The translations under genes and the position numbers were made by a program. The notes beneath the pieces were generated by a model. The model saw only the letters and a list, made by a program, of their open reading frames with translations. It was not told the origin of the DNA and did no database searches. This document shows positions 5,381-17,681 of a stretch of DNA of 64,000 bases, piece after piece. How positions within the stretch are numbered: position 1 is the first letter of the stretch; the number at the start of each line of letters is the position of its first letter. Where the stretch lies: the IMG/VR virus record IMGVR_UViG_3300025769_014365, positions 1 to 64,000 of that record. The stretch is one strand, 5' to 3'. This DNA comes from a virus.

Positions 5381-5584
5381 ATGGTAACAAAAAGAAAAAA
5401 AAGCAAAAAACTCAAGAAACTTGAAGATGAGCACCAGTACCTTGACAAGAAGGTGGCACAACTTACCAAAGACAGGCTCAAGGACAGGAGTTCCGAGAGC
5501 AAGGAGGTGCTTACCAGATTGAAGAGGACCAAGTTGATGATCAAGGATGCGATAGCCAGGGCTAGAGCCACCTTGACAAGATAG
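5381..5584 (+). CDS. Small coiled-coil protein, DUF465/YdcH-like
   Basis: Pattern LEDEHQYLDKKV...LKRTKLMIKDAI; GGAGG RBS upstream. Confidence 0.65.
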   Translation: MVTKRKKSKKLKKLEDEHQYLDKKVAQLTKDRLKDRSSESKEVLTRLKRTKLMIKDAIARARATLTR

Positions 5585-5601
5585 CCAACACATAGTATAA
5601 T
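5573..5601 (+). promoter_or_regulatory. Consensus sigma70 promoter TTGACA-N17-TATAAT
   Basis: Perfect -35 (5573-5578) and -10 (5596-5601), 5 nt before the ATG at 5607. Confidence 0.8.
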
Positions 5602-5606
5602 AAGAC

Positions 5607-6158
5607 ATGGACAGAGATTACAAAACAGGCAAGAGTGACAGTGTAGGCGTGTTTTCAGGACTGGAGATAGAACACACACCAGCCTACGGTCTACAGACAC
5701 TTTTCCTGGCAAGGAACGATCTCACACTGGAACAGATCAAAGAACTTGCTGAAATGGTCAATGCCAAAGCGATATATTATGGCGCAAACAGATCATTCAT
5801 GTACAACCACGGACTACAACTATCGCAGATGATCAAGTTAATGGAAGCAGGTTACTACGTGACCATAGATTATCCATACTCGTTACACGATGAAGTCAAA
5901 CAGAGATTCAAATTGATATGGAAGAACGAACTGTTCATACCATTCTGCTCCATAATATTTGCCAATTCCGAAGATGACGATCAACTCTGCATCAAAGTCG
6001 ATGACGTGGACTTCAACAAAACAAATCCCGGAGTATGGACAATGAGCATGAATCATTTCAAACAATCTGCAGGCTTCACTTCGTGGAAACAATACAAACA
6101 GGATAAACCAATACAGGAGAACAAATGGATACTGAGCACCAACGAAATCAAGCACTGA
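5607..6158 (+). CDS. Hypothetical phage protein
   Basis: 183-aa ORF behind a strong promoter, overlapping the next gene. Confidence 0.7.
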   Translation: MDRDYKTGKSDSVGVFSGLEIEHTPAYGLQTLFLARNDLTLEQIKELAEMVNAKAIYYGANRSFMYNHGLQLSQMIKLMEAGYYVTIDYPYSLHDEVKQRFKLIWKNELFIPFCSIIFANSEDDDQLCIKVDDVDFNKTNPGVWTMSMNHFKQSAGFTSWKQYKQDKPIQENKWILSTNEIKH

Positions 6159-6553
6159 AGGAACAGGCCAGCAAGGCCGAAAAAATGATTTGGGTAACAT
6201 TCCAGAAGGAAGGAATGCACAAATACCCGGCGGCACTGACAGATCCCAAACTGGCCACAGGCGACGAGTACGATGTGTCGTTCCTGGGACATCCACACAG
6301 ACACATTTTCCACTTCAAGGTGGCCATCGAGGTGTTCCACGATGACAGAGACATAGAATTCATACAGTTCAAGAGATGGCTGTTGAACCTGTACAAGGAA
6401 GGCACTCTACAGAACGACTTCAAGAGTTGTGAAATGATGAGTGATGACCTATACATTGAGATAGCCAAGAGATACCCGGGCAGACGTATAGATATCAACG
6501 TCTCAGAGGACGGTGAAAATGGGTCATACGCTGTGTATGAATTGAGAGATTAA
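6125..6553 (+). CDS. T-fold QueD-like protein, probable CDG decarboxylase (DpdL-type)
   Basis: FLGHPHRHIFHF fits LxxxHRHxF. Also SCEM and C-terminal VSEDGENG typical of T-fold PTPS/QueD relatives; lacks the canonical QueD CxxxHGH. AGGAG RBS. Confidence 0.7.
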   Translation: MDTEHQRNQALKEQASKAEKMIWVTFQKEGMHKYPAALTDPKLATGDEYDVSFLGHPHRHIFHFKVAIEVFHDDRDIEFIQFKRWLLNLYKEGTLQNDFKSCEMMSDDLYIEIAKRYPGRRIDINVSEDGENGSYAVYELRD

Positions 6554-9065: not shown

Positions 9066-10059
9066 AGGTTCAAGCAAAGCAGTATTGGTCACCGGCGGGG
9101 CAGGATACGTGGGTTCACACACCTGTAAGTTCCTAGCCAAGAACGGGTACACACCAGTTGTCATAGACAGGGACACTAAGACCAAATTCAAACCAGCCCA
9201 GTTTGGGCCGATATTCGATATAAACCTACCACAAGAGATAGAGAGGTTAGATGAGATCATAAAAAGGTTCAACATAACAAGTTGTATACACTTCGCGGGC
9301 AGTGCCTCCGTGGCGGAATCTGTGAAGGACCCATCCGAATACTACAAGAACAACGTGATAGCGACTGTCGTGCTACTGGACAAGTTGATCGAATGCGGAG
9401 TCAATACGTTTGTCTACAGTTCCAGCGCCGCGACATATGGAGATCCAGGAATGAGATTGTGTAAGGAATCAGATTGGCCTAAACCCATAAGTGCATACGG
9501 AGCCAGTAAACTGATGATGGAAATGATCTGTAAAGATTATCAGAGAGCATACGGATTGAGCAGTGTTGGATTAAGGTATTTCAACGCCGCGGGAGCGGAT
9601 CCAGAAGCAGAAGTGGGAGAACTGAGGGAGAAGGAAACTCACATAATACCATTGGCTATAGATGCTGTAAAACAAGGTAAGAAATTCAAAATGTTTGGTG
9701 ACCAATATCCCACAGAGGATGGAACCTGTGTGAGAGATTACGTCCATGTGATGGATCTGGCCGACGCACATGTAAAGGCATTGAATTACGCATCAGACAA
9801 CGAGGTTGCTGAAGTTTTCAATCTCGGATCAGGAGCACCCGCTTCGAATCGACAACTGTTAGATGCGGTACAGAAATACGCAGGAGAGATGACTATAGAA
9901 GTGCATCCAAATCGTCCAGGAGACCCCGCATACCTAGTAGCCGACATAACAAAGGTTAAAAAAATATTAGGATGGGAGCCAATACAGAGTTCCATTGACA
10001 ACGTGGTGGCCACTGCTGTACAATGGTATAACAAGACACATAAAAAGGAAATACAATAA
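9022..10059 (+). CDS. galE: UDP-glucose 4-epimerase
   Basis: VLVTGGAGYVGSH, HFAG, SSSAATYG, YGASK, LRYFNAAGA, DGTCVRDYVHV. Confidence 0.93.
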   Translation: MEDTTGHQYQNPSIKGSSKAVLVTGGAGYVGSHTCKFLAKNGYTPVVIDRDTKTKFKPAQFGPIFDINLPQEIERLDEIIKRFNITSCIHFAGSASVAESVKDPSEYYKNNVIATVVLLDKLIECGVNTFVYSSSAATYGDPGMRLCKESDWPKPISAYGASKLMMEMICKDYQRAYGLSSVGLRYFNAAGADPEAEVGELREKETHIIPLAIDAVKQGKKFKMFGDQYPTEDGTCVRDYVHVMDLADAHVKALNYASDNEVAEVFNLGSGAPASNRQLLDAVQKYAGEMTIEVHPNRPGDPAYLVADITKVKKILGWEPIQSSIDNVVATAVQWYNKTHKKEIQ

Positions 10060-10772
10060 TGAGCGAAGACATATTAAAAGACAGTTGGATGCCGGATGAG
10101 GCAGTCAGCAAGAGGATCAGGGACAGGATCAAGAAGGCGGGCAAGAGGTTCCACGCCAATGACAACATCGCCGACTACATCGAGGACGGCGAGATTGACG
10201 AGTTACAGGCAGAGGTACAGGAGAAACTACAGGGTGTGTTGGACAGCCTGGTCATAGACACGGAGAATGATCACAACACGCAGGAAACCGCAAAACGTGT
10301 GGCCAAGATGTACATCAGAGAGACGTTCGGTGGCAGGTTTAAACCAATGCCGAGGGTCACAAGTTTCCCCAACATGGGTTACAAGAGCATGTATACATCG
10401 GGACCGATATCGATAAGATCCACGTGTGCGCACCATTTCCAGAACATAGTGGGCAAGGCATGGGTTGGCATCATTCCCAACGGTGAGGTCATTGGACTGA
10501 GTAAGTTCAATAGGATAGTGCATCACATAGTGGAGAGACCACAGATACAGGAAGAGATGACCACACAGATAGCGGAGGAACTGAAGAAGTACGCCAAGAC
10601 CGAGAACATAGCGGTTGTGGTCAAGGCAGAACACCACTGCATGACACACAGAGGTGTGAGGGAACACGAATCAGACATGACAACAGCGATAATGCTAGGT
10701 GCGTTCAAAGACGATCCAGCAACCAGAGATGAATTCTACAAGATCTGCATGAGCATGAAGGGCCATGGGTAA
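10059..10772 (+). CDS. folE: GTP cyclohydrolase I
   Basis: ETAKRVAKM, STCAHH, GLSKFNR, RPQIQE, AEHHCMTHRGV. Confidence 0.96.
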   Translation: MSEDILKDSWMPDEAVSKRIRDRIKKAGKRFHANDNIADYIEDGEIDELQAEVQEKLQGVLDSLVIDTENDHNTQETAKRVAKMYIRETFGGRFKPMPRVTSFPNMGYKSMYTSGPISIRSTCAHHFQNIVGKAWVGIIPNGEVIGLSKFNRIVHHIVERPQIQEEMTTQIAEELKKYAKTENIAVVVKAEHHCMTHRGVREHESDMTTAIMLGAFKDDPATRDEFYKICMSMKGHG

Positions 10773-11013
10773 GGAAGAGAAGAAAACGTCGGACGGAGTC
10801 TGGCGCATGGAGGACTGGGACATTAGCGATGTCAACACAGGATCCGCGTCAGAGATGCTGACCATAGATGGCATGAGTTACAGTTTTGGTGAACTAGAGT
10901 TTGAAACTGATCAAAAATTAAGAGAAAAGTACCCAGCGTTAAAAGACGCATGGGATCACTACAACAACGTAAAGAAGATGTGTGAAGCAAAGGAGCAAGA
11001 AGATGAGAATTAA
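10765..11013 (+). CDS. Hypothetical protein
   Basis: 82-aa ORF overlapping folE and guaC; KYPALKDAWDHY. Confidence 0.6.
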   Translation: MGKEEKKTSDGVWRMEDWDISDVNTGSASEMLTIDGMSYSFGELEFETDQKLREKYPALKDAWDHYNNVKKMCEAKEQEDEN

Positions 11014-12052
11014 GGAGGACCTAAAACTAAATTTCGACGATGTGCTGATGGAACCCAAGCGCTCCACTTTGAGTTCTAGGAGAGATGTGGACATGACGAG
11101 GAAATTTAAGTTCCGGAATTCCGGCAAGATAATGGAATTCACTCCAATATTCGCCAGTAACATGGACGGTGTTGGTACATTCTCCATGGCCAAGGTGCTA
11201 CAGGAACACAAGATGATGACTGTTATAACAAAATCAACCACACTGGATCAATGGAAGGAAGCAGTGGGATCAGGCTTGAGACTACAGAGTGTAAGCGTCT
11301 GTACAGGCACCAACAAGATATGGGATCCAGAAGCGGAAGACTATGCGAGGATGCAGGACGTGTTGAGGAGTTTCCCAGATGTCAAGATGATCACTATAGA
11401 TGTTGCTAACGCATACCACCAGAATTTTGTGGATTTCATCAAGATGGTCCGAGACGAATACCCAGACAAGGTCATAGTGGCGGGCAACGTGGTCACACCA
11501 GAGATGGTGGAGGAACTGATCATTAACGGTGCTGACATGGTCAAGATCGGAATAGGACCAGGATCAGTGTGTACCACGAGGACGATGACCGGCATAGGTG
11601 TGCCACAGTTCTCGGCTATTGTGGAATGCGCTGATGCGGCCAACGGCGTTGATGGACACATAATGGCGGATGGCGGATGTGTGTGGCCCGGAGACATAGC
11701 CAAGGCGTTCGGTGGGGGAGCACACGCTGTCATGATAGGTGGAATGCTGGCGGGACACGATGAGTCAGAACAACCAGTTGTGGACGGCAAGGTTGAATTT
11801 TATGGCATGAGCTCAGACAGGGCTCGTGAGAAACACGGCAAGAGAAAAGACGGATACAGGGGCAACGAGGGAAGGTGGATCAGCCTGCCACACAGGGGAC
11901 CTGTGAATCCAACAGTGGAGGACATATTAGGCGGAGTGAGATCAGCGGCCACTTACATCGGTGCCCGTAGACTCAAAGATATGCCCAAGTGTGCCACTTT
12001 CGTTAGGGTCAACAACAACATCAACAGGGTCTATGAGCGTTACACCAAATAG
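11003..12052 (+). CDS. guaC: GMP reductase
   Basis: KLNFDDVLMEPKRSTLSSR, NMDGVG, IDVANAY, catalytic GIGPGSVCTTR, FYGMSS; no CBS domains. Start at ATG 11003 after AGGAG. Confidence 0.92.
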   Translation: MRIKEDLKLNFDDVLMEPKRSTLSSRRDVDMTRKFKFRNSGKIMEFTPIFASNMDGVGTFSMAKVLQEHKMMTVITKSTTLDQWKEAVGSGLRLQSVSVCTGTNKIWDPEAEDYARMQDVLRSFPDVKMITIDVANAYHQNFVDFIKMVRDEYPDKVIVAGNVVTPEMVEELIINGADMVKIGIGPGSVCTTRTMTGIGVPQFSAIVECADAANGVDGHIMADGGCVWPGDIAKAFGGGAHAVMIGGMLAGHDESEQPVVDGKVEFYGMSSDRAREKHGKRKDGYRGNEGRWISLPHRGPVNPTVEDILGGVRSAATYIGARRLKDMPKCATFVRVNNNINRVYERYTK

Positions 12053-12374
12053 AGTAGACGAGATAGAGGACAAGATCGAGGCACTTGAAGACAGCCTCAG
12101 TTCGGTGCGCAAGGTCACACCCATACACGATTCCACGTGGTACGTGAAGTGGATCTCTGTTGCGTTCGTTTGCTGTGCGGTGCTGTGTAGGTCAGTCGAA
12201 GAGATACCCAAAATATTTGACGTGTCATTCTCCATAGTGGGCACGGCCGGATGGTTATGGGTGGGATTCAAATGGCATGATAGAGCACTTATAATATTAA
12301 ACACAATTCTACTGGCCATGTTAGTTTCTGGAGCATTTAGATACTACCTTACGTACTTCGGATGGATACAATGA
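12033..12374 (+). CDS. Small membrane protein (about 3 TM)
   Basis: Hydrophobic segments WYVKWISVAFV, GWLWVGFKWHDRALIILN; in-frame ATG at 12033. Confidence 0.65.
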   Translation: MSVTPNRVDEIEDKIEALEDSLSSVRKVTPIHDSTWYVKWISVAFVCCAVLCRSVEEIPKIFDVSFSIVGTAGWLWVGFKWHDRALIILNTILLAMLVSGAFRYYLTYFGWIQ

Positions 12375-12835
12375 CGGAAGAAGTCAACAAGAGCTATTTC
12401 ACCACAGGTCAGATGCGCAATGCACTGATACAGATTGAAGACCAGATGGTGCACAGCAACTGGATGCCAAGCGTTATACTGGGCATTAACAGGGGTGGAT
12501 GTATTCCTGGCGTGTATCTCTCACACAGGCTGAACGTGCCACACGAAGCACTTGACGTGAGATTGCGAGACCATACATCCAAACCCGACCTATCGGTGTT
12601 AGAGAAGGTGTTCGCTTTCCAGAAGAAAATACTGATCATAGATGACATCAACGACTCTGGTGCGACATTCCAATATATCCTAGACAATTTTGGCAAGCCA
12701 GACGACAGGATCCGTTTTGCGGCCTTGATCAACAACAAACCGTCTCCGGTCAAGATGGACTACCATGGTTACCAGATCAACAAGGACGAGGTGCCCGCAT
12801 GGATAGTGTTTCCATGGGAAGATTGGGACAAATAA
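12371..12835 (+). CDS. Type I phosphoribosyltransferase (xanthine/guanine PRT-like)
   Basis: GINRGG, PRPP-binding ILIIDDINDSGAT, C-terminal WIVFPWE typical of Gpt; ATGA overlap. Confidence 0.88.
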   Translation: MTEEVNKSYFTTGQMRNALIQIEDQMVHSNWMPSVILGINRGGCIPGVYLSHRLNVPHEALDVRLRDHTSKPDLSVLEKVFAFQKKILIIDDINDSGATFQYILDNFGKPDDRIRFAALINNKPSPVKMDYHGYQINKDEVPAWIVFPWEDWDK

Positions 12836-13732: not shown

Positions 13733-14383
13733 ATGTTAAAATCACTACTGGCAGGCGTTGACAAGACGCTTGTAAGAAATCTAGTAATTCTACACACACT
13801 TGTTATCGCTGTGTCGAACTACCTAGTTACGATCAGATTTGATCTGTTCCCTGGTGCGGACCTTCCGTTGTTTGGATCGTTTCCACTTGCGGCGGCGGCA
13901 TTCACATTTCCGATCGTAGTAGTCGCAACTGACTTGACGGTCAGATTGGTCGGCAAGGAAGCGGGAAGGGCCGTCGTAGCAATGGCGATCATTCCAGCCA
14001 TCGTTGCATCAGTACTGGTACTGTTGGCACTGGGTGATCCACACGCGTATAGGGTTGGATTCGCATCAGGTACGGCATACGCGATTGGTACCATGCTTGA
14101 CGTGTACGTTTTCCAAGCGATCAGAGAAAGATCTGACAATTGGTGGGCGGCACCGGCACTATCGACCATCGCGGCGAACATAATCGACACATACTCGTTC
14201 TTTTACGTGGCGTTCGCAGGATCGTTGGATGCGGAAGGTAACCTATCGTGGATCGGTGAGAACTGGCACGTGGTTGCGCAGAACAACACACTGACCAAGA
14301 TCGTGGTCGGTCTGATAGTGTTCCTACCAGCGTATGGAATACTGTTGAACAGACTGCAGGTCATTGGCAAGAAGAAAAAATAG
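13733..14383 (+). CDS. yhhQ: YhhQ/VUT family queuosine-precursor (preQ0/preQ1) transporter
   Basis: HTLVIAVSNYLV, FTFP..ATDLTVR, AYAIG..LDVYVF, WWAAP..ST, DT..FF.VAF and FLPAYG.LLN all follow the E. coli YhhQ pattern. Confidence 0.88.
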   Translation: MLKSLLAGVDKTLVRNLVILHTLVIAVSNYLVTIRFDLFPGADLPLFGSFPLAAAAFTFPIVVVATDLTVRLVGKEAGRAVVAMAIIPAIVASVLVLLALGDPHAYRVGFASGTAYAIGTMLDVYVFQAIRERSDNWWAAPALSTIAANIIDTYSFFYVAFAGSLDAEGNLSWIGENWHVVAQNNTLTKIVVGLIVFLPAYGILLNRLQVIGKKKK

Positions 14384-14412: not shown

Positions 14413-14442
14413 TTGACAACTCATCTAAATATCCTTTATAAT
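14413..14442 (+). promoter_or_regulatory. Sigma70 promoter TTGACA-N18-TATAAT with TAAATA inside the spacer
   Basis: Perfect hexamers, read directly. Confidence 0.7.
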
Positions 14443-14864: not shown

Positions 14865-15287
14865 GTGAACATCTACACCATATACGCCGACCACAAAGAC
14901 AACATCACAGCACATGACTTCGTGTACAAGATGAAATTGTTCCTAGATAAGTTAGTCGATCACAGGAAAATGTCCACTTACAGGATCACTAGGATGAAAC
15001 TGGGTTTCAGGTCAATGGATTTACCTGAATTCAGGATTGACATGGAGTTTGACACTATGCAGGCTCTTGATGATGCTATGACTATTACCATTGCTGACAA
15101 AAAAGTAGATCAGGTACATGTTGGATTCAATCAGTATGTGAATACCGATACCATACAACACTTTTTGTACAGAGATTTTCCAGATGATCTAAATAAGCCA
15201 AAGTTGACAGAACAGCAAGACCAGTTTACAATAGATGAGATAGTCAAGGCAACAAAAAATATAAAACCAGAATTATGGAAAGAATAA
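14865..15287 (+). CDS. Hypothetical protein (DUF6614-like)
   Basis: GTG start; YRITRMKLGFRS..LPEFRIDMEF pattern recalled from this family. Confidence 0.5.
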   Translation: MNIYTIYADHKDNITAHDFVYKMKLFLDKLVDHRKMSTYRITRMKLGFRSMDLPEFRIDMEFDTMQALDDAMTITIADKKVDQVHVGFNQYVNTDTIQHFLYRDFPDDLNKPKLTEQQDQFTIDEIVKATKNIKPELWKE

Positions 15288-16162
15288 GGTATTCGGAAAT
15301 ATTCTACAGTGTACAAGGCGAGGGGAGGTTCGTTGGAGTGCCTTCGGTGTTCTTTAGGACGTTTGGCTGTAATTTCCACTGCCATGGCTTTGGACAGGGT
15401 AGAGATAGATCAAAATGGATCCAACCCGAAGACATGCCCTACAACACACAGGACATCACAAACATCAAACACATATCCGAACTACCGGTTGTGAACATAG
15501 GTTGCGACGCTTCGGCCAGCTGGAGCGCTAGATACAAGGACCTAGTGGATTGGGATCCTGTAGACGAGATAGCAAAAAAGGTCACAGCACACACACCAGA
15601 GAACCGATGGACCTGTGCGAACGGACAGGATGTTCATTTCATAATCACGGGCGGTGAACCCATGATGTGGCAGAGACAGATCGAGGCACTGATCAGGCAA
15701 CCAGAATTCAACGACTTAAAGAACATCACCGTAGAGACCAACTGCACACAGGCATGGAAGGACAACTTCGACAAGTTCATGCATGGACTGACCGCGGGCG
15801 ATTACACTAAGGAACCTGTACACGTGACATGGTCAACATCACCAAAACTGAGCATATCAGGCGAGGCATGGGAGAAGGCCATAAGAGCGGATGTGGCGAG
15901 GCAATACTCACTGATACCCAACACACACCTATACTTCAAGTTCGTGGTGCAGGACGAACAGGATCTTAAGGAAGTGGATTCGGCAAGGGAGGCATACTCT
16001 AAGGCGGGGGTCACTGGAGACATATATCTCATGGCTGTAGGGGCCACACAGGAAGGTCAATCTAAGACATCATCACAGGTGGCAGAGATGGCCATGAAGA
16101 ACGGCTACAAATACTCCCCAAGACTGCACGTGGACCTGTTCGGAAATAAATGGGGTACATAA
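15275..16162 (+). CDS. queE: 7-carboxy-7-deazaguanine synthase (radical SAM)
   Basis: SEIFYSVQGEG..VGVPSVFFRTFGCN, ITGGEP, VETN, TSPKL, FKFVV, SPRLHV..GN. Cysteine motif is Cx3Cx40C. Confidence 0.92.
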   Translation: MERIRYSEIFYSVQGEGRFVGVPSVFFRTFGCNFHCHGFGQGRDRSKWIQPEDMPYNTQDITNIKHISELPVVNIGCDASASWSARYKDLVDWDPVDEIAKKVTAHTPENRWTCANGQDVHFIITGGEPMMWQRQIEALIRQPEFNDLKNITVETNCTQAWKDNFDKFMHGLTAGDYTKEPVHVTWSTSPKLSISGEAWEKAIRADVARQYSLIPNTHLYFKFVVQDEQDLKEVDSAREAYSKAGVTGDIYLMAVGATQEGQSKTSSQVAEMAMKNGYKYSPRLHVDLFGNKWGT

Positions 16163-16244: not shown

Positions 16245-17681
16245 ATGGAACTTGCTATATTAATGGCGGGTATCGTCTATGGCTTGATCATTGGCCTGAT
16301 ACCAGCCGCGGGAGCAACAACAGGTCTTATCACACTGTTTGGATTCATGCCCTACTTCGTGGGCGACCCCTACCTGGGCGTGATATTCTGTGTGGCAGTC
16401 GTTGCTTCATCAACAACCGGTGATTCATTCAGTGGTGTGCTACTCGGCATACCCGGAGCCAACTCTGCGGCCGCAACTATGGTGGATGGCTTCCCCATGG
16501 CCAAAAACGGAGAGGCAACACGAGCATTATCAGCCGCCATAACCTCCAGCACTGCCAACGGATTGTTTTGGGGATCACTTACATTTTTATTCTTGCCTTG
16601 GTACACCAAAGTTGTGATGTACATGGGCGTACCTGAACTGTGGGCGCTGGTGCTGTTGGCATTTGTGACTGTTGGATTCGTTTCAACTAGGAAATATATT
16701 AGAAGCACACTAGCCATAGTGTTAGGAGTGACAATAGGACTGGTAGGTGTTGATGTCAATAATGTTCCTCGTTTCACCCTGGGATGGAGATATCTCGAGG
16801 ACGGTGTACAAATATTACCTTTCGTGGCAGGACTGTTCGCCATACCTGAACTGTGGGATGGATGGTTCAACAGAAAAAAGACAACAACAATACGGGCGGA
16901 ACACGGCAGTTGGCATGATCTTAAACAGGGAATGAAAGACACACTTATCTGTTGGAAGGACAGCCTCAGAGGAGGGGCAATAGGTTCTTTTATTGGATTG
17001 TTACCAGGACTGGGTGGAGCAATGGCAGACTGGTTGGCATACGGTGCCACGGTTGCGGCCAATCCCAAGGAGAAGTTTGGTGTGGGCAACGTCAAAGGCG
17101 TGATAGGTGCCGAGGGGGCCAACAACGCACAGAAGGCCTCGTCATTCATTCCAACCGTGCTGTTTGGCATACCGGGTGCCAGTTTCGCCGCGATACTGAT
17201 GGGACTTTTCTTATACCTGGGCATAGACCTAGGATCACCTGACACATTCCACGACGACAGATTATTTGACAGCATGACATTTGCTTTCTTGCTGGGAACG
17301 ATAATTACCGCCGTCATCTGTTATGGACTGGCATATTTCGCAGGTTGGGTCACACGTATTCCATACGTGTATTACTTTCCTTTCATACTTGCTGTGATAA
17401 TCTGGGCCACGCTACAGTACACCGGTGGTTGGGAGGACCTCGCGGTGCTCTTCGCATTCTCGATCTTGGGAGTGCTGTGTAAGAAATTCCAAGTCAGCAG
17501 GCCAGCACTGCTGATCGGATTCCTGTTGAGTGACAGGATCTACAATCTCACTTACCAACTAACAACGCTCCACACGGTGACGGATCTGATCACAAGACCG
17601 ATCTTTATTTCCATAATGATCTGTGTTATACTGTTGCTGTACTGGGGCATAACAAAAAGGAGCAGAATAGACTATGCTTAA
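16245..17681 (+). CDS. tctA: Tripartite tricarboxylate transporter, large permease TctA
   Basis: Multi-TM; GLIPAAG, LLGIPGANSAAAT..DGFPMAKNG, GLLPGLGG, EGANNA, FGIPG. Confidence 0.92.
   Translation: MELAILMAGIVYGLIIGLIPAAGATTGLITLFGFMPYFVGDPYLGVIFCVAVVASSTTGDSFSGVLLGIPGANSAAATMVDGFPMAKNGEATRALSAAITSSTANGLFWGSLTFLFLPWYTKVVMYMGVPELWALVLLAFVTVGFVSTRKYIRSTLAIVLGVTIGLVGVDVNNVPRFTLGWRYLEDGVQILPFVAGLFAIPELWDGWFNRKKTTTIRAEHGSWHDLKQGMKDTLICWKDSLRGGAIGSFIGLLPGLGGAMADWLAYGATVAANPKEKFGVGNVKGVIGAEGANNAQKASSFIPTVLFGIPGASFAAILMGLFLYLGIDLGSPDTFHDDRLFDSMTFAFLLGTIITAVICYGLAYFAGWVTRIPYVYYFPFILAVIIWATLQYTGGWEDLAVLFAFSILGVLCKKFQVSRPALLIGFLLSDRIYNLTYQLTTLHTVTDLITRPIFISIMICVILLLYWGITKRSRIDYA

Follow-up and report, generated by a model that had tools for sequence, protein, structure and literature searches.

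The first 64 kb of an IMG/VR virus record of 96,195 bp (IMGVR_UViG_3300025769_014365), hereafter the window, encode a GMP reductase (GuaC) and a purine phosphoribosyltransferase (PRT) at positions 11003-12835, and both genes lie within a module for the replacement of guanine in DNA by 7-deazaguanine. Among viruses, the PRT is a nearly constant part of this module that has gone unnoticed, while GuaC is a recurrent, optional accessory of it. We tentatively propose that the two enzymes form the purine-handling arm of the module and may serve as a sink or recycler for the guanine expelled from phage DNA. The source virus is a giant uncultured ocean phage. CheckV rates the record as 27% complete, which puts the genome size near 350 kb, and at 47.6% GC such a genome would hold about 170,000 G per copy; a contig of 324 kb is known from the same clade. 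A first-pass annotation, made from the letters of the window, had named both enzymes and assigned them to a deazaguanine system. The names proved right on profile scores and conserved motifs, in genes that are intact, and the assignment is borne out by the neighborhoods of the PRT in viral contigs and in the isolates that we checked. The same annotation left out a DUF6552 membrane protein that lies between GuaC and the PRT.

From its profile matches, the PRT is predicted to be a type I purine PRT of the virus-specific family phrog_8995. The solved structures nearest to its family profile are archaeal purine PRTs (1vdm, E 1e-18; 4z1o), followed by the E. coli xanthine-guanine enzyme XGPRT (E 5e-9). 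Its scores fall far below the cut-offs of curated equivalog models (42.5 against 138 for XPRT, NF006613; 28.4 against 150 for HGPRT, TIGR01203), and it is therefore best described as a relative of the XPRT and HGPRT families rather than filed as an equivalog of either. The protein keeps the phosphoribosyl pyrophosphate (PRPP) binding motif, here DDINDSGxT, together with a WIVFPWE motif, and residues D94, D95, D98, G100 and T102 do not vary among six viral PRTs of divergent sequence. The 6-oxopurine signature DDxxD(S/T)G is retained, including the third acidic residue, Asp98. In the 6-oxopurine PRTs (HGPRT/XGPRT), this third Asp of the PRPP motif acts on N7 of the purine, and 7-deazaguanine has no N7.

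GuaC appears by its sequence to be a canonical, ordinary-looking class-1 GMP reductase. It matches the Pfam IMPDH/GMPR family (PF00478, 224.6 bits) with no CBS insert in the barrel, scores above the cut-off of NCBIfam NF003470 (463.3 bits against 397) and under that of TIGR01305 (435.7 bits against 492). The alignment with human GMPR1/2 runs end to end at about 55% identity (E 1e-112). The GPGSVCTTR cysteine loop, the GMSS motif and the glutamate of YRGNEG are all retained, and they are invariant in six viral GuaCs.

The two genes are coupled to the module in the window and in its relatives. From folE through an 82-aa open reading frame (ORF), guaC and the DUF6552 gene to the PRT gene, each stop overlaps the next start. 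The order of the block from FolE to the PRT is kept in 16 of 19 viral loci with close relatives of the PRT (70-95% identity), and the other three loci end at the PRT. Across these close loci the genes run DpdA-like ... DpdL-like ... glycosyltransferase-epimerase-FolE-small ORF-GuaC-(DUF6552)-PRT-(YhhQ)-cupin-QueE. Using a profile of divergent PRTs, we also gathered a broad set of 80 viral loci (PRT identity 35-88%) and counted the genes within 8 kb of the PRT. QueE was found at 74 loci, FolE at 56, DpdL at 42, QueD at 33, a TGT-like gene (for tRNA-guanine transglycosylase, TGT) at 30 and GuaC at 18. All 80 viral loci, as well as five unrelated isolate lineages, have this PRT subfamily next to deazaguanine genes. 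A second lineage arranges its genes in the order TGT-like-DpdL-glycosyltransferase-GuaC-FolE ... QueD-PRT-QueE, and in one further locus (L064) the PRT and GuaC abut in reversed order. The first-pass annotation had held that a distribution of both genes independent of dpdA would count towards refuting its reading. No such independence is seen for the PRT, given its 80 of 80 loci, while the link of GuaC to the module is partial, as described below.

Single genes have been swapped inside otherwise near-identical blocks in four of the close loci. The FolE of L004 is just 48% identical to that of the window, though its flanks are 92-100% identical, and the QueE proteins of L005, L017 and L018 are 33-36% identical to the window QueE.

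By DNA-level search, no relatives of the block were found among isolated phages. The PRT itself is encoded by several isolates. Synechococcus phage BUCT-ZZ01 carries the series QueE-PRT-x-QueD-FolE-glycosyltransferase-TGT-like-DpdL-glycosyltransferase at 65.7-72.6 kb, without GuaC; its TGT-like protein is 416 aa in length (E 3e-4 to the profile of the window's TGT-fold family) and its DpdL matches at E 3e-27. In Flavobacterium phage immuto_2-6A, QueE and FolE flank the PRT, with DpdA3 nearby, and in Cellulophaga phages phiST, phi13:1 and phi19:2 the PRT adjoins a gene resembling deoxynucleoside monophosphate (dNMP) kinases and ribonucleotide reductase (RNR). Brevundimonas phage MaInes has the order QueD-QueE-(weak DpdA3-like ORF, E 0.008)-DNA polymerase-RNR-dNMP kinase-FolE-PRT at 49.4-60.4 kb, and is likely an undescribed deazaguanine phage of an alphaproteobacterium. 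The order PRT-x-radical SAM is found in 15 Campylobacter Firehammervirus records, including CP220. A different arrangement was seen in Vibrio phage 033B of the Queuovirinae, where folE adjoins QueC and a classical DpdA. Its FolE (L205:4821-5723) is 300 aa in length with an N-terminal extension of ~115 aa, which bears a weak resemblance to the PRPP motif of the PRT (Pfam E 0.1; tblastn E 9e-4).

The phages reported to have fully replaced genomes are phiST (dDG), immuto_2-6A (fdPreQ1) and CP220 (dADG) (PMC10516641), and each of these three groups carries the PRT. Among the phages with low-level modification in the same study, two tblastn queries did not find the PRT. By this comparison of gene content, the PRT appears to track complete G replacement.

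The window also contains a candidate for the enzyme that inserts the modified base. A 482-aa ORF, 5.6 kb 5' of guaC, has no Pfam or PHROG match; its family is marine and very large. In an alignment of 52 sequences of this family, D109, S110 and G112 (within GDSGGFQ), H257 and D290 are invariant. An AlphaFold2 model built with this alignment reached a mean predicted local distance difference test score (pLDDT) of 91.7; seven close sequences gave only 32, so the deep alignment was needed. In a Foldseek search with the model, the top 50 PDB matches were all tRNA-guanine transglycosylases (E 1e-8, probability 1.00). On the strength of the model we are confident that this ORF encodes a TGT-fold, DpdA-like candidate. 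At the sequence level it has no match to DpdA3 (hhalign E 0.19, not significant), and a PDB search with the family reached TGT at E ~1, again not significant. The known DpdA3 proteins of phiST and immuto_2-6A likewise escape the Pfam TGT model, and the silence of this model on the 96-kb record is thus uninformative. Every PRT-bearing isolate that we checked has a TGT-like candidate beside the module: DpdA3 in phiST and immuto_2-6A, and the weaker matches given above in BUCT-ZZ01 and MaInes. We sought complete PRT-bearing phages without a TGT-like gene, as such a phage would have favored a pre-replicative route to the modified base, and the two examined for this, BUCT-ZZ01 and MaInes, both have weak candidates.

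Among the known systems closest to the window module is that of phiST, in which FolE, QueD, QueE, DpdL and DpdA3 underlie dDG (Hutinet/Cui et al., NAR 2023, PMC10516641). Both modules have FolE, QueE, a DpdL-like gene and a TGT-fold candidate inserter, and both are without QueC. In addition, phiST encodes a PRT homologous to that of the window (CGPG_00045, 30% identity), although the paper mentions neither PRPP nor a phosphoribosyltransferase. The window module differs in that its 482-aa protein has no match to the DpdA3 profile or to Pfam TGT, and in the addition of GuaC, YhhQ, DUF6552, a glycosyltransferase and an epimerase. The replacement base of the window module is probably dDG as well. 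In CP220 (100% dADG) and immuto_2-6A (100% fdPreQ1), a PRT of the same family stands beside QueE or FolE; these phages differ from the window in their final bases and in having no GuaC, and immuto_2-6A also has QueF and DpdN.

GuaC has a more complicated distribution than the PRT. It occurs without deazaguanine genes nearby in phages XacN1 and Cr30 and in a related contig, L124, and is thus not bound to the deazaguanine module. In L124 it adjoins radical-SAM paralogues that resemble those at 40-47 kb of the window. L124 and a second contig, L125, were binned into metagenome-assembled genomes of Pacearchaeota and SAR202, respectively, and their GuaCs are 68% and 63% identical to that of the window; both are probably phage contigs binned with cellular genomes. 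In a quick tree, the GuaCs of the window clade form one well-supported group, and those of the second lineage fall elsewhere, loosely with Pelagibacteraceae. The approximately unbiased (AU) test rejects a single viral GuaC clade (p 0.0125), with the caveat that the tested group was chosen after viewing that tree. GuaC therefore appears, on this phylogeny, to have joined the module at least twice. Within the module it always adjoins FolE or the PRT, and recruitment to the same place at least twice argues for a functional tie.

These observations suggest how the parts could work together. FolE, QueE and the DpdL-like enzyme, along with a QueD whose gene lies elsewhere in the genome, would make the free base, which YhhQ might also import, and the TGT-fold, DpdA-like enzyme would swap this base for guanine in phage DNA. 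Each exchange would free one guanine, amounting to about 170,000 per genome copy. With PRPP, the PRT could convert the freed guanine to GMP. The GMP could then be re-phosphorylated to GTP, the substrate of FolE, or be converted by GuaC in an irreversible step to IMP and ammonia, and the IMP could supply adenine nucleotides. Because the base exchange is reversible, removal of its product would also help to drive it to completion. A PRT followed by GuaC (gpt plus guaC) is the textbook route from guanine through GMP to IMP, and in a guanine sink each enzyme would perform the chemistry that it is known for. Such a sink would explain both the constant TGT-fold partner of the PRT and the retention of an Asp directed at N7. 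It would also account for the apparent link between the PRT and complete replacement, because product removal drives a reversible exchange. Consistent with this model, no MazG, HD-type dNTPase, PurA or QueC was found in eight related viral records that we searched for missing enzymes. Recycling of guanine excised by DpdA was one of two roles put forward in the first-pass annotation, and it has become the better supported of the two through the TGT-fold gene and the N7-directed Asp, while the substrates of both enzymes, the direction of flux and the tie to complete replacement are points that we infer.

In this model, the PRT and GuaC would carry out the same pair of successive reactions as cellular salvage by Gpt/XGPRT and GuaC in E. 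coli, or by the archaeal PRTs 1vdm and 4z1o, and the window PRT shares with the cellular and archaeal purine PRTs a common fold, the PRPP motif and a C-terminal WxxxPW. In contrast to cellular salvage, the window guaC and PRT genes are coupled in translation inside a DNA-modification operon.

A number of considerations weigh against a guanine sink. To our knowledge, all other known complete base replacements in phage DNA use the nucleotide pool. A scheme in which G is polymerized before its excision still requires G nucleotides, and so a drain on GMP is not obviously useful. The PRT often lies between QueD and QueE, amid biosynthetic genes, and genes for nucleoside monophosphate (NMP) kinases adjoin the PRT or lie in the module in phiST, MaInes and immuto_2-6A. 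FolE, GuaC and the PRT are collinear with tubC, tubD and tubE of the tubercidin (tub) cluster (PMC6112128). DpdA3 and DpdL failed to make dDG in E. coli (Hutinet et al., PMC10516641), which fits a missing nucleotide-level step. Finally, the eight related records are each just 20-55% complete, so the absences from them are weak evidence.

The guanine sink has as its main rival a nucleotide-level route like that of tubercidin. In the tub cluster, TubE joins 7-carboxy-7-deazaguanine (CDG) to PRPP, and the resulting product is deaminated by a homologue of GMP reductase, TubD (PMC6112128). The tubercidin and toyocamycin clusters of Streptomyces (TubC/D/E; ToyD/E/H) also encode FolE, QueD and QueE beside a GMP reductase homologue and a type I PRT. 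The likeness of the window module to the clusters of TubE and ToyH is one of gene content and order, rather than of compared PRT sequences. The Streptomyces clusters differ from the module in having no nucleic-acid insertion enzyme, in yielding a free nucleoside as the end product (through a Nudix or HAD step) and in using a UbiD decarboxylase where the window has DpdL.

Applied to phage DNA, such a route could act before replication, which we consider unlikely. The PRT would ribosylate CDG or 7-deazaguanine, kinases of the host or phage and RNR would carry the product to 7-deaza-dGTP and the phage B-family polymerase would incorporate it, with GuaC lowering the competing G pool and the TGT-like enzyme merely polishing residual G. 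TubE has been proven to act as a CDG:PRPP phosphoribosyltransferase, and its cluster also contains FolE, QueD, QueE and a GMP reductase (PMC6112128; bioRxiv 10.64898/2026.04.15.718813). A pre-replicative route would be in keeping with a PRT in all three of the 100% replaced groups, embedded between QueD and QueE and adjoined by NMP kinases and RNR in phiST and MaInes. A MazG-like pyrophosphatase in the phiST module and the unsuccessful attempt to reconstitute DpdA3 (PMC10516641) point the same way. This route sits poorly with the TGT-fold gene found beside the PRT in each genome checked and with the retained N7-directed Asp. The weak PRT-like extension of FolE in a Queuovirinae phage with QueC and a classical DpdA likewise speaks against it, as does the lack of any dGTPase, MazG or HD protein in the eight related records. 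GMP reductase chemistry, moreover, takes place at C2. Since TubD takes both substrates, a co-expressed GuaC would be expected to destroy 7-deaza-GMP as well as GMP. The other role put forward in the first-pass annotation, with the PRT ribosylating 7-deazaguanine and GuaC draining canonical GMP so that the polymerase takes up the analogue, is for this reason chemically awkward as written (TubD, a GMP reductase homologue, accepts GMP and its 7-deaza analogue; PMC6112128), and no dGTP-clearing enzyme was found in the eight related records. TubE also did not take unsubstituted 7-deazaguanine (PMC6112128), and the window module has DpdL.

In an improbable branch of the same route, the PRT would make a 7-deaza-GMP analogue, GuaC would convert it to 7-deaza-IMP, and host PurA and PurB would complete 7-deaza-AMP. 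The outcome would be a second 7-deazapurine (7-deazaadenine or 7-deazahypoxanthine) in the nucleic acid of GuaC lineages, or a toxic nucleotide. The gene content of the tub cluster is matched (FolE, QueD, QueE, GMP reductase and PRT, without QueC, and with DpdL replacing the UbiD decarboxylase), the order FolE-GuaC-PRT is identical to that of the cluster (PMC6112128), and GuaC appears to have entered the module on two or more occasions. However, GuaC is optional in the module where the PRT is near-universal, it resembles an ordinary class-1 GMP reductase, and the related records showed no PurA, no HD-type dNTPase and no Nudix-like enzyme for the finishing step. A genome-mining rule for secondary metabolites also holds that deazapurine clusters must lack DpdA/TGT (bioRxiv 10.64898/2026.04.15.718813), and the window locus, with its TGT-fold DNA-insertion candidate upstream of guaC, would be excluded by it. 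That the PRT and GuaC serve generic purine metabolism, rebalancing host purines for a large phage genome and neighboring deazaguanine genes through shared early expression rather than shared function, strikes us as scarcely probable: phage nucleotide-metabolism genes are often clustered and GuaC stands alone in XacN1, Cr30 and L124, but the PRT subfamily lies beside deazaguanine genes in all 80 viral loci examined and in five unrelated isolate lineages, and GuaC appears to have arrived at one and the same spot on two or more occasions.

For phages that replace every guanine with a 7-deazaguanine, reconstitution of the proposed inserter, DpdA3, has yet to succeed. The PRT is a concrete, testable candidate for a missing component, whether as the product sink that completes the exchange or as the entry to a nucleotide-pool route. 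Our literature search found no paper linking a phosphoribosyltransferase to DpdA, in agreement with the description of the pair as an unrecognized arm of the pathway in the first-pass annotation. A helper step that removes and recycles expelled guanine, the likeliest role of the pair in our reading, was likewise absent from the papers searched. The recurrent gain of GuaC points to selection for control over the guanine pool in these ocean phages, which are abundant, and the culturable carriers BUCT-ZZ01 and phiST make a test of the PRT feasible.

Table 1. Features of the deazaguanine module and its surroundings, with positions in the 64-kb window (aa, amino acids).
Feature	Position	Strand	Evidence or remark
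TGT-fold, DpdA-like transglycosylase candidate, 482 aa	3923..5371	+	AlphaFold2 model and Foldseek
DpdL-like QueD paralogue	6125..6553	+	31% identity to phiST CGPG_00067, E 2e-11; phrog_17812 E 4e-33
Sigma-70-like promoter match, 11/12	9995..10024	+	consensus scan only; just 5' of folE
GTP cyclohydrolase I (FolE)	10059..10772	+	Pfam PF01227 161 bits; phrog_2197
82-aa ORF, overlaps both folE and guaC	10765..11013	+	conserved; no family match
GMP reductase (GuaC), ATG start, 349 aa	11003..12052	+	NF003470; PDB 2ble/2a7r
DUF6552 small membrane protein, ATG start, overlaps guaC and PRT gene	12033..12374	+	Pfam PF20189 49.3 bits (cut-off 27)
Phage-type purine PRT, ATG start, 157 aa	12362..12835	+	Pfam Pribosyltran PF00156 45.1 bits (cut-off 26.3); phrog_8995 E 1e-20
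ORF between PRT and YhhQ, 257 aa	12882..13655		no family match
YhhQ-type 7-deazaguanine precursor transporter	13733..14383	+	TIGR00697 92.7 bits (cut-off 51)
QueE-like radical SAM (CDG synthase)	15275..16162	+	phrog_2076 E 3e-53; 38% identity to BUCT-ZZ01 QueE
TctA tripartite tricarboxylate transporter subunit, full-length	16245..17681		314 bits; directly after QueE
P-loop protein, 194 aa	18720..19304		adenylate kinase (AdK)-like GAPGSKWS

The module belongs to a tightly packed series of genes on the + strand that begins downstream of a B-family DNA polymerase (Table 1). The DpdL-like protein has no match to Pfam PTPS and is proposed to be a CDG decarboxylase yielding 7-deazaguanine; a peroxiredoxin, a glycosyltransferase and an epimerase are encoded between it and folE. 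The FolE score falls slightly under the NCBIfam equivalog cut-offs. The promoter match just upstream of folE is a possible start of the folE-guaC-PRT unit. The small ORF between folE and guaC is kept in all relatives (33-93% identity), and the DUF6552 gene varies among them, being present in 7 of the 19 close loci. YhhQ directly follows the PRT in many relatives, with a spacing of -36 to 86 nt (L046, L047, L022), and cupin and DUF6614 genes lie between YhhQ and QueE. QueD is absent from the 96-kb record, and a canonical QueD lies ~50 kb away in relatives (G002-G004). Pfam searches of the 96-kb record for TGT, QueC and PTPS gave no matches, and QueC was not found in the eight related records either.

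Some neighboring features were also noted. The 257-aa ORF downstream of the PRT is shared with one close relative only (L004, 53% identity), and the PRT and YhhQ are adjacent in the others. Two perfect 12/12 sigma-70 consensus matches, at 5573-5601 and 14413-14442, precede the ORF 5' of the DpdL-like gene and the cupin gene, respectively. We considered the P-loop protein downstream of TctA as an NMP kinase and dropped this assignment, as its Atlas features suggest a sulfotransferase-like family; its Atlas neighbors include a cluster with Sulfotransfer_3 in 11% of members.

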